Shown here in pieces: positions 1,080 through 26,038 of a DNA stretch of 63,513 nucleotides. The DNA lies in IMG/VR virus record IMGVR_UViG_2585427777_000008, positions 1 through 63,513 of that record; one strand, given 5' to 3'. How positions within the stretch are numbered: the first letter of the stretch is position 1; the number at the start of each line of letters is the position of its first letter. Under the pieces are notes generated by a model. That model did not search any database, had not been told where the DNA came from, and saw nothing but the letters and a program-made list of their open reading frames with translations. A program made the position numbers and the translations under genes. This DNA is from a virus (taxonomy: Duplodnaviria > Heunggongvirae > Uroviricota > Caudoviricetes).

Positions 1080-1112
1080 CGTACGATTTTTTCCGAATTC
1101 TGCGGGCTCCCC
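1075..1112. repeat. 38-bp terminal inverted repeat of a Tn3-family transposon (outer end GGGG at 1109-1112)
   Basis: Reverse complement reads GGGGAGCCCGCAGAATTCGGAAAAAATCGTACGCTAAG, the canonical 38-bp Tn3-family IR shape (GGGG...ACGCTAAG). Sharp GC drop immediately after 1112. Confidence 0.8.
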
Positions 1113-1244
1113 TTAAAACAATTTTCCTCAATAGTTAAGTCAAACATCCCGGCGTTAATTGTTAACTGGTTAACGTCACCGGGAGGCACCCGGCACCGCA
1201 ATCTAACAGCAATGGCGTTTTGTCTTAAAAGGTAGCTGCAAGTG

Positions 1245-1382: not shown

Positions 1383-1458
1383 GGCCCTTTAGCTCAGTGG
1401 TTAGAGCTGGCGACTCATAATCGCACGGTCACCGGTTCAAGTCCGGTAGGGGCCACCA
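1383..1458 (+). tRNA. tRNA with CAU anticodon (closest in shape to enterobacterial tRNA-Ile2/lysidine type; elongator Met not excluded)
   Basis: 76-nt cloverleaf: acceptor GGCCCTT/AGGGGCC, D-arm GCTCAGTGGTTAGAGC, anticodon loop CTCATAA (CAT at 34-36), T-arm ACCGG/TTCAAGT/CCGGT, discriminator A, encoded CCA. G1-C72 pair argues against initiator tRNA. Confidence 0.85.
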
Positions 1459-22272: not shown

Positions 22273-22579
22273 GCACTCTCCTTTCGAAATAAACGTACTG
22301 ATTAATCATTCCCAGGGGCATTTCGAGTTTTTCTGCGATCTCACGGCGGGGAACACCACACTGATGAAGCTGCCGCGCCAGTTCTATATCGCTCTGCCGG
22401 TATTTGGCTGACTGGTGAAAGTCTCCTTTCAGAATCATGCTGATCCGCAGCTCCCGCGCTTTGGTCCTGACGGCATCACCGGTACGACCGATCAGCTTCC
22501 CAATACTCTCTACCGTCATAGTTCCGGCGCACTGGCGGAGTATCATGATTTCTGCCCTTCCCCATCCCCGCCAGCTCAC
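22262..22579 (-). CDS. putative HTH DNA-binding protein
   Basis: 105 aa with two HTH-like segments. Confidence 0.4.
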   Translation of the reverse strand: MSWRGWGRAEIMILRQCAGTMTVESIGKLIGRTGDAVRTKARELRISMILKGDFHQSAKYRQSDIELARQLHQCGVPRREIAEKLEMPLGMINQYVYFERRVHEV

Positions 22580-23226
22580 GCCGACATCCTCTGAGACATA
22601 AACTCCACAAAACGAACTGCATCTTCAGAAACAACGCCGCATGACTTCAGATAATTCATTGCGTCATTAGGTAGCGGATTAGTTGGTTCGGCATTTGCCA
22701 GGGATTGAGATAAACGCGTGATTAATTTGACCATTCTCCGCTGCCGGAGGTTGTATCCTTCAGCTAAAGACAGGTAACTGGAAAGGGTATTGCTTAAGCG
22801 GGCGCGAAGCTGATCCGTGCCGTGACATTCAATAGCAACATCACGTAACGCATCGACCAGTTCACGGTAAAGATGCGCTGCCATTCTGCAATCTGTGTCA
22901 GATGGTGCTTCATAAATTACCGTCAACCCCAGTTTTTCAGCCAGAGCGTGTTCTGCACGTGCTCCTGCGGACACATCCCATCCCTTAAGCAGATAGATCG
23001 CATCAGCAGAACGCACCATTGCCAGGCAAATATCCATGTATTCACTCTGACAAAGGCCACCAGGTAACACAGCTGGATTCAGAACGATATGCCCTTCAGC
23101 CATCAGCTCGCTCGCTTTCGCATTAAACGCCGCACGGTTGTAATCTGGATAACCAGTCATCGGCCCCGCGATGTAAATTTTCAAAACACGTTTCACCATC
23201 AAAATTTCCCCAAAATCGTGACGCAA
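22576..23226 (-). CDS. DUF4406-like (nucleoside 2-deoxyribosyltransferase-like fold) protein with C-terminal extension
   Basis: 216 aa; KIYIAGPMTG near the N-terminus matches the signature of that family; about 95 extra C-terminal residues. Confidence 0.45.
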   Translation of the reverse strand: MRHDFGEILMVKRVLKIYIAGPMTGYPDYNRAAFNAKASELMAEGHIVLNPAVLPGGLCQSEYMDICLAMVRSADAIYLLKGWDVSAGARAEHALAEKLGLTVIYEAPSDTDCRMAAHLYRELVDALRDVAIECHGTDQLRARLSNTLSSYLSLAEGYNLRQRRMVKLITRLSQSLANAEPTNPLPNDAMNYLKSCGVVSEDAVRFVEFMSQRMSA

Positions 23227-23471: not shown

Positions 23472-24050
23472 ATGCAGAAACAGAGTTATTGGGAGAAACA
23501 GAGACAAAAAGCCATGCAAAAATTGGCTGACCCGGCCTGGCGAGAGGAACAAAGGGCAAAGCGCCTTCAACAAGCTCAACGCCAGCAGCAGCGAGCGAGA
23601 GAAAAAGCCGCATCGCCTGAATATCGGCAAAAGAAAATTGAAAAAGCAAAGCAATATGAACAGCGGAGAAAAGATAAAGCTGTATCCGCTCCGTCCAAAA
23701 AAACACGCACGTCACGCGGCCTGAAGGGCAGATCACTCACAGCTGATGAACGCCGGATACAGACCGCTATCGGTACTCTCCCCTGCATTGCCTGCCATAT
23801 TCACGGACAACATAGCCCAGTAGTATCCCTGCACCATATCTTCGGGAGAACGGCAGAGAACGCGCATAAATATGTCCTCCCTTTGTGTAAATGGCACCAC
23901 CAGTACGCAGCGCCAGCCGAGGTCCGAGAACAATATCCCTGGCTGGTCCCTGTTCATGCTGATGGAAAAATAGGCGGAAAAGCAGATTTCATACGGCACA
24001 ATGCCGATGAAATGGCGTTGTATCAGATGGCGATTGAATTGATAAATTAG
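23472..24050 (+). CDS. ref: Ref-like HNH endonuclease (recombination enhancement function-like)
   Basis: 192 aa; highly charged Lys/Arg/Gln-rich N-terminal half and C-terminal HNH-like Cys/His cluster (CIACHIHGQH...CKWHH). Operator-like motif upstream, as for P1 ref. Confidence 0.6.
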   Translation: MQKQSYWEKQRQKAMQKLADPAWREEQRAKRLQQAQRQQQRAREKAASPEYRQKKIEKAKQYEQRRKDKAVSAPSKKTRTSRGLKGRSLTADERRIQTAIGTLPCIACHIHGQHSPVVSLHHIFGRTAENAHKYVLPLCKWHHQYAAPAEVREQYPWLVPVHADGKIGGKADFIRHNADEMALYQMAIELIN

Positions 24051-24060
24051 TTTTCTAACA
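24051..24060. promoter_or_regulatory. operator-like motif TTTTCTAACA at the head of the immI-like region
   Basis: Directly after the ref-like stop, upstream of the candidate immunity RNA region. Confidence 0.4.
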
Positions 24061-24381
24061 TTTTAAGTTGAATTGTAAATTTCTCCGATGTACATTCACT
24101 ACCGATTGGCACACCGGTCAACTTTTTGAGACAAACTATTTAGTTTTTCGTATGATTGCCGCCGCCATACCAATGGCGGTGCAATATAGGTGGCTGAAAA
24201 GCCCCCGTTGACTCACGGTGTTCCAGCCTTTATTGCGCCGCCACCAGACCGTGGAACAGTCGATGGCGGCTCCGAAAGCAAGGAGTCACTACACTATGAA
24301 CAACTACAGTCTTTTCCCATCACTCGTCGTCCACCACTCACGCGATAATCTGCATTCTTTACTCGCGCCGGGGGTGTCAAA

Positions 24382-24549
24382 ATGACTGTTCGCTACCTCA
24401 ACTTTCAAATCAAGAACATTACTGGCGGTTGCTATGACTGGTTTGTCACTCTCGGAAAAGAAGTGATCACCGGGAAGCTGGATGAAGTGAAAGCTAAAGC
24501 AATGGCCTACGCCTGCAAGCAAGCCCGGAAGAAATCCGCCAAAGCATAA
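24382..24549 (+). CDS. possible small protein (55 aa)
   Basis: ATG 24382 to TAA 24547-24549, translation MTVRYLNFQIKNITGGCYDWFVTLGKEVITGKLDEVKAKAMAYACKQARKKSAKA. Preferred over the overlapping minus-strand ORF 24304..24522, but weak. Confidence 0.25.
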   Translation: MTVRYLNFQIKNITGGCYDWFVTLGKEVITGKLDEVKAKAMAYACKQARKKSAKA

Positions 24550-24643
24550 AATACTGACTGTTGCGCCCTGGCATTATCGTGGGGTATATTTCTACGGCAC
24601 CTTAGAAAAACGGGTGCCGGGATTGGAACCCCGGATAATGTCA

Positions 24644-24667
24644 AAGGCGACACAGACGCCGAAAGCG
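24644..24667 (+). terminator. rho-independent terminator
   Basis: AGACGC-CGAAA-GCGTCT hairpin followed by seven T residues. Confidence 0.65.
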
Positions 24668-24689
24668 TCTTTTTTTGTGTCACGCCATC

Positions 24690-24830
24690 GCACAGCCATA
24701 CGTAGCGTTTAGCTCAGAGATCAATGGTAGTGCTGGCTGGGCTGCCGAAAGGCAGGCCGGTTCCCTTTGACGCCGGTAGTTCCAACCCAGTCAGTGCTAC
24801 CGCCATTGAGATTGGAACCTCACGCGGTAG
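24690..24830 (+). ncRNA. candidate c4-like antisense immunity RNA (boundaries approximate)
   Basis: Structured non-coding stretch with a tRNA-like 5' part (GCGTTTAGCTCAG...) and a GNRA hairpin (CTGCC-GAAA-GGCAG). CCTTTGAC at 24755-24762 is complementary to GTCAAAGG at 24843-24850, which overlaps the Shine-Dalgarno of the icd-like ORF, and to an upstream copy at 24630-24637. Confidence 0.35.
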
Positions 24831-24861
24831 CTCCTTAACTTAGTCAAAGGAGGCTGCCAAT

Positions 24862-25077
24862 ATGGCTACTATCCCTACCCCAACTCATTCTGAATTTATC
24901 TGGCGTTTCTATTCCTGCCAAAAACACCTGTATATCTGCGTCATGGCTGCTACCGAAGCAGAGGCGCGCTCATACCTTCCCGAAGAACCCTGCATTTTTG
25001 CTGCTCGCTTCACTCTTGATGCGATGGAGATCCTCAATTACTGGAATCTGCCGATGAACTGCGTGGAGGTACACTGA
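24862..25077 (+). CDS. Icd-like small protein (by position)
   Basis: 71-aa ORF whose RBS is the candidate antisense target; its stop overlaps the antirepressor start (ATGA at 25074-25077). Confidence 0.4.
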   Translation: MATIPTPTHSEFIWRFYSCQKHLYICVMAATEAEARSYLPEEPCIFAARFTLDAMEILNYWNLPMNCVEVH

Positions 25078-26003
25078 TGAATCTGTCCATCTCTCAAAAA
25101 GCGACAATGACAAGTATTGAGATCGCGGAGCTGGTGGGTAAGCGTCCTGACAACGTTAAACGCACCATTGAACACCTGGCGGAACGGGGCGTAATAACTT
25201 TTCCTCAAATTGAGGAAAAGCCCACCGCAGGCCGCCCGGCGAGCTATTACGTCTTCGAAGGCGAACAAGGCAAGCGCGATAGTATTATCGTCGTCGCGCA
25301 GCTCTCTCCCGAATTCACCGCCCGGCTGGTGGACCGCTGGCGCGAACTGGAGAGTGCCAGGGGACCGTTAAAATCAAAAGCCGAAATTCTGGCTGAAATG
25401 GCGCAAATGCATCTTGAGCATGAACGCCGGATCAACGCCGTAAATGCCCAGGTAGCCGAGGTATCGGCACAAGTATCGATGGTCGCTGAAACACTCGAGC
25501 AAATAAAGAAAGGCAATATTCCGGAAGGCTACATTGGCTACCGCCAGCTGGCGGCGAAATGTGGCCTGACTGAAGCCAAATGTCGCAACCTGGTTAACGC
25601 TTACCGGATTCCAACCGATACGCATGAGTTTTTAACGCCAGATGGTTTGCTTGCCCGACGCTCCATTGTGGCCTTAGCCCCCTTCCGGAAAGCCTTCAAG
25701 CAGGTTATGTCGGAGGCAGAACCACGCAACAAACGCTGGTATCATCCGAAGATGGGGCTGTTTCAGGCAATCCATCATCCTTTACCGGAAATCCCAAAAG
25801 ATAATCTGTCACTGCATACCGCCAGAGAGAAGATCAGAAGTGGATATGCAACGGTATGCCGTCGCGCCTCATGGTCTGAAGGTGTATGGGTATGGCCCGA
25901 AGGCGGATCAAGGAAGCACTGGCGCACTATCCGGGATGGGAAAATCCATGCTATTGATTTAGCGCCAGAGGATATGGTTGCTATGGACTGGATTGTTAGT
26001 TAA
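25077..26003 (+). CDS. ant: antirepressor-like protein (Ant/Rha-type N-terminal domain)
   Basis: 308 aa; N-terminal MTSIEIAELVGKRPDNVKRTIEHL resembles phage regulatory/antirepressor N-terminal domains; coupled to the icd-like ORF. Confidence 0.55.
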   Translation: MNLSISQKATMTSIEIAELVGKRPDNVKRTIEHLAERGVITFPQIEEKPTAGRPASYYVFEGEQGKRDSIIVVAQLSPEFTARLVDRWRELESARGPLKSKAEILAEMAQMHLEHERRINAVNAQVAEVSAQVSMVAETLEQIKKGNIPEGYIGYRQLAAKCGLTEAKCRNLVNAYRIPTDTHEFLTPDGLLARRSIVALAPFRKAFKQVMSEAEPRNKRWYHPKMGLFQAIHHPLPEIPKDNLSLHTAREKIRSGYATVCRRASWSEGVWVWPEGGSRKHWRTIRDGKIHAIDLAPEDMVAMDWIVS

Positions 26004-26011
26004 TTACTGTT

Positions 26012-26038
26012 GCCCCGGCCAGGTCGGGGCTTTAATTT
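26012..26038 (+). terminator. rho-independent terminator after the antirepressor gene
   Basis: GCCCCG-GCCAGGT-CGGGGC hairpin followed by TTTAATTT. Confidence 0.55.

Follow-up and report, generated by a model that had tools for sequence, protein, structure and literature searches.

A C4-type antisense RNA in the leader of the icd-like/antirepressor operon of a D6-like phage-plasmid

Introduction

Phages P1 and P7 repress icd and ant with C4, an RNA that is excised by RNase P to a length of ~77 nt, according to Hartmann 1995 as cited in PMC11143913 and to the review PMC12197685. The processed 77-nt RNA of P1 is the genetically defined repressor (P1 annotation; PMC12197685). The immI regions of both phages run from a promoter through a first pair of target sites (a1 and b1), a terminator or terminator-like hairpin, and C4 to a second pair of target sites (a2 and b2), icd, and the antirepressor gene. 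That specificity in this family follows from complementarity has been known since P1 and P7, which are heteroimmune (PMC12197685, PMC6906374), and a 2010 catalogue of RNA motifs lists C4 and c4-a1b1 among those of phages (PMC2864571). Homologues of c4, icd and the antirepressor gene have been described in an ImmI-related region of the D6-like phage-plasmid pYU39_89, together with a second c4/icd region (PMC6799933).

A parallel literature concerns Gifsy-1, an integrated lambdoid prophage with the gene order IsrK-orf45 (STnc1160)-anrP. In the published model the region that corresponds to C4 is an mRNA and IsrK is its activator; activation of an antirepressor in trans by the short, terminated IsrK has been demonstrated for Gifsy-1 only, and two compensatory mutant pairs, G28A/C162U and G31A/C159U, have been published (PMC4825925). 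The same authors regard IsrK as structurally analogous to seqA of satellite phage P4, and the downstream stable RNA STnc1160 as analogous to the P4 CI RNA (PMC4825925). CI (seqA/seqB/seqC) is likened here by description: this small RNA is cut from its own leader and pairs with repeated sites on either side, as at the locus reported below, but by the account of the IsrK authors it shuts off replication genes through premature transcription termination and not through occlusion of an antirepressor ribosome-binding site (PMC4825925). The 2025 review keeps the work on IsrK and that on P1 c4 apart (PMC12197685).

Genomic setting

The window analysed here is a stretch of 63,513 nucleotides from a Caudoviricetes virus (IMG/VR record IMGVR_UViG_2585427777_000008). 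Between the stop codon of a 55-aa ORF (24549) and the ATG of an icd-like gene (24862) lie 312 bp that are poor in open reading frames and hold no credible gene, in agreement with an initial annotation that described a roughly 300-bp non-coding stretch ahead of the icd-like ORF. This stretch (24550-24861) is the leader of the icd-like/antirepressor operon in a D6-like phage-plasmid. The assignment of the window to this group follows from its identity to D6 and to plasmids and from its matches in E. coli: the surrounding ~1.6 kb (24380-26010) shares 94.4% identity with orf85-orf82 of Escherichia phage D6 and ~95% with many ~90 kb plasmids of E. coli and Salmonella; the 321 bases 24550-24870 occur with 100% identity in the RefSeq E. 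coli plasmid NZ_CP127300.1, and 44 RefSeq E. coli records match them with at least 99% identity. The leader is matched in 310 of 5,426 complete E. coli genomes (~6%), where 317 of the 325 places are plasmids and the carriers are almost always phage-plasmids. The orthologous locus comprises orf83 and orf82 in D6 and is present in D6-like plasmid prophages (e.g. pYU39_89, CP011430). Its neighbours in the window are ref and small ORFs, whereas P1 immI adjoins sim. A query of species-representative genome contigs with the Icd-like protein returned no confirmed relative.

An isrK-type leader and a C4 RNA

The 312 bp encode two catalogued regulatory RNAs (Table 1), so existing annotation of the locus in RefSeq and in the D6 GenBank record is in error. 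The first RNA reaches 62.7 bits with the Rfam model of isrK, an Hfq-binding RNA (RF01394; cut-off 50), over model positions 1-77, and has the layout of that family, two hairpins followed by a Rho-independent terminator; the isrK alignment also supports the terminator, which the initial annotation had recognised but placed at 24644-24667. With the c4-a1b1 model (RF03163) the same leader scores 22.4 bits, under the cut-off of 46.7, while P1 and Gifsy-1 reach 51.0 and 48.1 bits. Even so, the leader has the same layout, two hairpins of which the second carries a1 in its loop, and it is therefore regarded as an isrK subtype of the same element. Upstream, a candidate sigma-70 promoter occupies the alignment columns of the annotated -35 and -10 of P1c4/P51b in P1, its -10 aligning with that of P51b. 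It was missed by a consensus scan of the locus, and its -35 is weak (three of six consensus positions). Transcription would start near G24597.

Table 1. Features of the leader and operon in the window
Feature	Position	Strand	Description
Candidate sigma-70 promoter	24561..24590	+	Predicted; -35 TTGCGC 24561-24566, 18-nt spacer, -10 TATATT 24585-24590
isrK-type leader RNA	24597..24675	+	Hairpin 1, hairpin 2 with a1, single-stranded b1, terminator; Rfam and fold
a1 target TTGGAAC	24623..24629	+	Loop of leader hairpin 2; covaries with a'
b1 target GTCAAAGG	24640..24647	+	Motif search and covariation
Rho-independent terminator	24654..24677	+	AGACGC-CGAAA-GCGTCT then T7; stem 24654-24670, T-run to 24677
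C4 antisense RNA gene	24720..24807	+	Rfam C4 RF01695
C4 hairpin 1	24742..24755	+	CUGCC-GAAA-GGCAG; GNRA loop 24747-24750
b' recognition sequence CCTTTGAC	24764..24771	+	In 12-nt loop of C4 hairpin 2 (24756-24777)
a' recognition sequence GTTCCAA	24779..24785	+	Single-stranded junction between hairpin 2 and closing stem
a2 target TTGGAAC	24812..24818	+	Eight bases 3' of predicted C4 end
b2 target GTCAAAGG (24843-24850)	24843..24853	+	Overlaps icd-like Shine-Dalgarno AAGGAGG 24847-24853
icd-like gene, 71 aa	24862..25077	+	Stop TGA overlaps ATG of next gene by one base
Putative Rha-family antirepressor gene, 308 aa	25077..26003	+	Regulated cargo; PHROG 63, Pfam
Terminator-like hairpin	26012..26030	+	Closes operon; terminator scan

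The second RNA scores 77.1 bits with Rfam C4 (RF01695; cut-off 45, E 2.4e-13) over model positions 1-87, against 68.8 bits for P1's own c4 on the same model. Its mature form is predicted at ~24726-24804 from homology to the annotated 77-nt C4 of P1. The minimum free energy is -48.7 kcal/mol, far more stable than shuffled sequences (z -5.4), and in the predicted fold a 17-bp closing helix surrounds two hairpins, one with the GAAA loop and one whose loop has 12 nt, after which comes a junction of 8 unpaired nucleotides. When 31 diverse C4 relatives are folded together, the consensus has 27 pairs, and compensatory changes are seen in 17 of these. Covariance score and fold are joined by two downstream targets, one of them on a ribosome-binding site, and by upstream copies of both (a1 and b1). 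The region is a real and already catalogued member of the P1-type C4 family, and it would work like P1 c4.

The initial annotation had anticipated much of this arrangement. Its c4-type antisense RNA, with targets on both sides and ahead of icd-like and antirepressor ORFs, was right in mechanism and context, its GNRA hairpin is real, and two of the checks that it had proposed, RNA folding and covariation, came out in favour of the RNA. The complementarity that it reported is real as well, and the copy on the Shine-Dalgarno sequence was correctly located, but the other two coordinates were 9-10 nt off: CCTTTGAC had been put at 24755-24762 and the upstream GTCAAAGG at 24630-24637. The two-target layout stands, although the motif that had been labelled a corresponds by position to the b element of P1, and the a-pair, TTGGAAC/GTTCCAA, had been overlooked. 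The statement that the sequences are unrelated to P1 c4 is contradicted by the C4 score and by the 63% identity of the Icd-like protein to P1 Icd. A tRNA reading of part of the leader was rejected, as ARAGORN found no tRNA gene in 24000-25000 and the single Rfam tRNA match in the whole window lies at 1383-1455.

Covariation of the recognition sites

Counted by itself, the GTCAAAGG 8-mer is not significant, with four matches in the window against 1.86 expected and seven of 100 shuffles reaching four. The longer GATTGGAACC, which is complementary to GTTCCAA at 24779-24785, occurs twice (24621-24630 and 24810-24819) against 0.15 expected. That the a/b arrangement lies far beyond chance follows from comparative evidence. 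Relatives were collected as 80 IMG/VR loci found through the Icd-like protein, 120 loci found through a DNA pattern of the a1 hairpin, which guarantees an a1 site but not a matching a' or a2, and annotated phages (P1, P7, both loci of D6, RCS47, phiP27, Stx phage F039 and Gifsy-1). The C4 profile identified 143 copies in the collected loci, and the 105 distinct leaders contain 10 a'-types and 28 loop types in 34 combinations. With G-U pairs allowed, the whole a' 7-mer finds its complement at an upstream site in 98% of these leaders and at a downstream site in 100%, compared with 7.6% and 9.8% for non-cognate pairs. Similarly, the loop finds at least 8 complementary nt upstream in 96% and downstream in 98%, compared with 10% and 5% for non-cognate pairs.

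The changes are concerted. Among closely related leaders all three copies of the b element switch together, from GTCAAAGG/CCTTTGAC to GCAAAAGG/CCTTTTGC, and the a element changes jointly from TTGGAAC/GTTCCAA to TTGAGAC/GTCTCAA, TTGGTCT/AGACCAA or TTGGCGT/ACGCCAA. In a MAFFT alignment of 33 representatives, covariation reaches 0.316 for a'-a2 plus b'-b2 (0.118 in shuffles) and 0.484 for a1-a' plus b1-b' (0.168 in shuffles); none of 500 shuffles attains either value, and slid controls of the long-range pairs score far lower. The a1-a' helix is paired in 93.9% of alignment cells. The 72-84% of paired cells found elsewhere understate the true complementarity because the b sites, along with the P1-type rows, are partly misaligned, and the alignment-free search gives 96-100%. 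Family membership, the fold, the site positions and a three-way covariation of the recognition sites are thus what the analysis itself demonstrates.

The icd-like gene and the putative antirepressor

The 71-aa Icd-like protein is 63% identical to P1 Icd (E 6e-28) and scores 49.4 bits with NCBIfam phage_ICD_like (cut-off 25). The 308-aa protein that follows matches PHROG 63, 'anti-repressor Ant' (E 3e-62), and its score with Pfam Phage_pRha is exactly equal to the cut-off. Similarity to P1 Ant1 is limited to a BLASTP match over 67 aa with E 0.011, and the protein is not of the Ant1/Ant2 type; comparison with AnrP of Gifsy-1 gave no homology. A search of the whole window with the consensus of the P1 C1 operator (Op51/Oc4), allowing up to three mismatches, gave no match; the D6-type repressor may recognise a different operator.

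Comparison with P1 and Gifsy-1

The locus is collinear with immI of P1 and P7. It shares with P1 the covariance model and fold of C4, the location of b' in the loop of hairpin 2 and of a' in the junction, b2 on the icd Shine-Dalgarno sequence, and an overlapping stop and start codon. Unlike P1, it has a leader of the isrK subtype, an additional spacer of ~40 nt between terminator and C4, and a Rha-family antirepressor that is not homologous to Ant1/2, and it lacks a P1-type C1 operator.

Gifsy-1 carries the same leader family, with 79.3 bits for isrK (34316-34240) against 62.7 in the window, followed by a C4-family RNA of 69 bits (34214-34131). Its published mutations map exactly onto a1 (UUG28G29C30G31U32) and a' (A158-A164) of the Rfam-defined isrK and C4 RNAs. 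Since the pairs G28-C162 and G31-C159 fall on a1 and a', the a1-a' helix is genetically proven in this sister system, and it is the same cis pairing that is predicted for the window. As its start codon (AUG107), orf45 has the AUG that is conserved in the 5' stem of C4. Gifsy-1 IsrK/orf45 and P1 c4 are therefore the same module, with IsrK as the a1b1 leader. In contrast to the window, Gifsy-1 has no icd, its C4-overlapping ORF reaches as far as the start of anrP, AnrP shows no relation to the Rha-type protein, and the element is an integrated prophage and not a phage-plasmid. The module of the window is itself already known, given that the Rfam families are curated and that the c4/icd/antirepressor homology of D6-like plasmids has been published (PMC6799933). 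The combination of isrK and C4 is annotated in some GenBank phage records and has been noted for APSE phages.

Proposed regulation and alternatives

The region is best read, with a probability of roughly 85%, as the regulatory leader of an operon of the P1 immI type, made up of leader, C4, icd-like gene and antirepressor gene, in a D6-like phage-plasmid. By analogy with P1 and Gifsy-1, transcription would begin at a promoter immediately before 24597, and the first 80 nt of the transcript would form the isrK-type leader with the decoys a1 and b1. Many transcripts would end at the intrinsic terminator and yield a short isrK-type RNA of 80 nt that carries both decoys, as in Gifsy-1 (PMC4825925), while those that read through would carry C4, its long closing helix enclosing two hairpins. 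RNase P and a 3' nuclease would then release C4, as in P1, and its b' element (CCUUUGAC, in the hairpin-2 loop) and a' element (GUUCCAA, in the junction) could bind b2 and a2 of its own transcript or of sister transcripts. Such pairing would cover the icd Shine-Dalgarno sequence and block translation of icd; antirepressor synthesis would be blocked with it, because the stop and start codons overlap by 1 nt and probably also because of Rho polarity of the kind seen in P1. In the unprocessed transcript a1 and b1 would sequester a' and b' in cis, and the predicted minimum free energy structure of the read-through leader does pair a1 with a' and b1 with b'. The short terminated leader may in turn titrate C4 in trans and so act as an anti-antisense activator, as shown for Gifsy-1 IsrK, whose trans-activation is most simply explained as titration of the C4 recognition sites. 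Two pairings, a of 7 nt and b of 8 nt, would set the specificity.

Positive control of the kind published for Gifsy-1 would assign the same elements different roles: the C4 region would be mainly an mRNA, in which a short ORF (24724-24843, the equivalent of orf45), whose start codon is the AUG conserved in the 5' stem of C4, is unlocked by the leader in trans and coupled to the genes downstream, with no processed antisense repressor. In Gifsy-1, translation of anrP rises more than 100-fold when IsrK is supplied in trans and falls when orf45 carries a stop codon (PMC4825925); AUG107 of orf45 is that conserved AUG, the equivalent 39-codon ORF of the window ends at 24843, 18 nt ahead of the icd ATG, and the read-through structure ties up a' and b' with a1 and b1, all of which suits such a scheme. 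It is nonetheless rather unlikely here, as the ORF from the conserved AUG varies between 3 and more than 82 codons (14 in P1), loop indels are not multiples of three, and the C4 stems show compensatory changes at the RNA level. Moreover, a2 and b2 covary with a' and b', which an activation-only model does not need, and in P1 the genetically defined repressor is the processed RNA (PMC12197685). The antisense and IsrK views can be largely reconciled if IsrK is read as an anti-C4 decoy. The lack of conservation in ORF length likewise argues against a protein product, and so against the very improbable reading that the conserved sequence is a protein gene with incidental complementarities. The 39-aa translation does score 32.2 bits with Pfam Phage_ASH (cut-off 26), and RefSeq has a CDS at the equivalent position, but 17 compensatory base pairs back the RNA fold, the recognition sites covary three ways, and the covariance-model score is well over threshold; the coding interpretation of this ORF was rejected.

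Control of the P4 CI type, in which pairing of C4 at seqA-like and seqC-like sites mainly causes premature termination and not a block of translation, is an unlikely scheme. It draws on the IsrK-seqA and STnc1160-CI analogies of the IsrK authors (PMC4825925), and on the position of the terminator between b1 and C4. The translated C4 gene also matches the Pfam Ash family (PF10554, Phage_ASH), a family that derives from the phage P4 immunity region. The overlap of b2 with the Shine-Dalgarno sequence, in the window and in nearly all relatives, is what translational occlusion predicts, however, and a terminator scan between a2 and the icd start found no terminator-like hairpin. Termination in P1 was reportedly found by Biere, Citron and Schuster in 1992 to be a Rho-dependent consequence of translational repression, which also counts against this scheme. 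As for existing records, RefSeq labels the equivalent of 24724-24843 as the CDS of an 'ash family protein', and GenBank's record of D6 has at this place a spurious ORF on the opposite strand and no RNA.

Specificity of the window allele

The a and b elements of the window, TTGGAAC and GTCAAAGG, differ from those of P1 (TTGACAG and GTTAGTG) and P7 (TTAGCAG and GATTGTG), and each differs by two bases from its counterpart in D6 (TTGAGAC and GCAAAAGG). P1 and P7 are separated by the same magnitude, two nucleotides in each of the two elements. The predicted duplex energy of the window C4 is -21.5 kcal/mol on its own a2 and b2 and -8.8 kcal/mol on the D6 targets; the corresponding values are -11.5 for P1 on P7 targets and -13.0 for P7 on P1 targets, against -23.5 and -23.6 for the cognate duplexes. 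As the sites differ, the non-cognate duplexes are predicted to be weak, and P1 and P7 are heteroimmune at equal divergence, the specificity of the window C4 is likely distinct from those of D6, P1 and P7. The distinct immunity specificity suggested by the initial annotation is thus plausible, although the allele is a common one; 20 sequences of the comparative sample carry this a/b combination.

A broader proposal is offered tentatively, at somewhat less than even odds. The window C4 (TTGGAAC with GTCAAAGG) would be heteroimmune to D6 (TTGAGAC with GCAAAAGG) at the level of antirepressor control, as one allele of a combinatorial two-site code of at least 10 a-types and at least 28 loop types in 34 observed combinations that arise as D6-like, P1-like and lambdoid phages recombine. 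The locus would also be a tandem one, with two tiers of antisense control, through a diverged C4-like RNA 550 bp upstream (24169-24248) that has its own matching sites on the ribosome-binding site of a pair of small ORFs. Which relatives, co-resident or superinfecting, can set off each other's antirepressor presumably depends on the a/b allele, which may hence bear on the compatibility and spread of D6-like plasmids, some of which carry resistance genes.

D6-like elements carry two c4 modules, either of which is a candidate for a role in immunity. The second c4-icd-ant module of D6 lies at ~20.9 kb, is 90% identical to the P1 leader, and is outside the window, in which comparing the locus with itself by BLAST gave no further copy. 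The upstream C4-like RNA at 24169-24248 is nearly invariant among relatives, and D6 alone has it among phage records.

The IsrK/orf45 system of Gifsy-1 is the same module

The IsrK/orf45 system of Gifsy-1 is an a1b1 leader, carrying the upstream target copies, followed by a C4 RNA. The compensatory pairs reported for Gifsy-1, G28-C162 and G31-C159 (PMC4825925), are the helix formed between the target copy a1 and the C4 junction site a’, and the start AUG of orf45 is the conserved AUG in the C4 stem. The same Gifsy-1 leader scores 79.3 bits with isrK and 48.1 bits with c4-a1b1, passing both of these Rfam families, although they are separate entries with no common clan. A 2025 review handles IsrK and c4 as unrelated systems (PMC12197685).

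Protein annotations overlie the C4 RNA

RefSeq/PGAP places a CDS, “ash family protein”, at 24724–24843 (+), and its 39 aa translation scores 32.2 bits against Pfam Phage_ASH, above the cut-off of 26. This ORF sits within the C4 RNA gene, and the length of the ORF overlapping C4 is not conserved, ranging from 3 to more than 82 codons across the family. Therefore, what the Phage_ASH family represents, at least in this part, appears to be an RNA gene in translation. In the D6 GenBank record, C4 is covered by a spurious ORF on the opposite strand, orf84.

Several C4 modules occur in one element

Phage D6 contains two C4 modules, one being that studied in the window, and a second, P1-like module at ~20.9 kb in D6 (L086), outside the window, that precedes another icd and a Roi-like antirepressor. 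Its a site, TTGACAG, is that of P1, and its b site, ACTTACG, is new. The P1-like phage-plasmids RCS47 (L002), JL22 and vB_EcoM-673R5 each carry a P1-type and a D6-type module, the latter being inserted between pacB and c1 in RCS47. Three tandem isrK-C4 modules, of three different a/b types, are present in IMG/VR contig 2671181028_000005 (L106), at ~9799, 10455 and 11111. At a hybrid locus, L036, recombination may have occurred inside the leader, as suggested by an a1 (TTGAGAC) that does not match its own a’ (GTTCCAA) and a2 (TTGGAAC).

The spacer and neighboring features

Leaders of the window type have a terminator–C4 spacer ~40 nt longer than that of most relatives. It includes TAGCTCAG, a stretch similar to the D-arm of a tRNA and probably the source of the “tRNA-like segment” in the initial annotation. 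The spacer matches no tRNA and no Rfam family, and that label is not upheld.

Features of the window and the Gifsy-1 locus
Feature	Position	Strand	Support
Weak STnc100 match, near tRNA gene	1095–1194	+	26.5 bits, under cut-off 47
tRNA gene	1383–1455	+	Rfam 64.7 bits
DUF4406 protein	22576–23226	-	
Ref-type RecA-dependent nuclease	23472–24050	+	Pfam RecA_dep_nuc, E 1e-34
Promoter-like site, 5’ of upstream C4-like RNA	24128–24156		
Candidate second, diverged C4-like RNA	24169–24248	+	Rfam C4 39.5 bits, sub-threshold (cut-off 45)
29-codon ORF	24296–24385	+	Shine-Dalgarno carries GAGUCA
Conserved 55 aa ORF	24382–24549	+	PHROG 7786, unknown function
Spacer, terminator to C4	24678–24719	+	
Gifsy-1 leader and C4 (L209)	34131–34329 of L209	-	Rfam isrK, c4-a1b1

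A candidate diverged C4-like RNA lies 550 bp 5’ of the C4 module, with a fold z of -4.4. All 7 nt of its junction, UGUUCCA, have their complement in UGGAACA at 24252–24258, and its 6 nt loop, UGACUC, is complementary to GAGUCA at 24283–24288, on the Shine-Dalgarno of a short ORF that overlaps the conserved 55 aa ORF at ATGA. This RNA is found among phage records in D6 only, and almost no variation is seen across 22 D6-like relatives. D6 also shares the arrangement of the window in having the Ref-type nuclease and the DUF4406 protein directly 5’ of the RNA locus.
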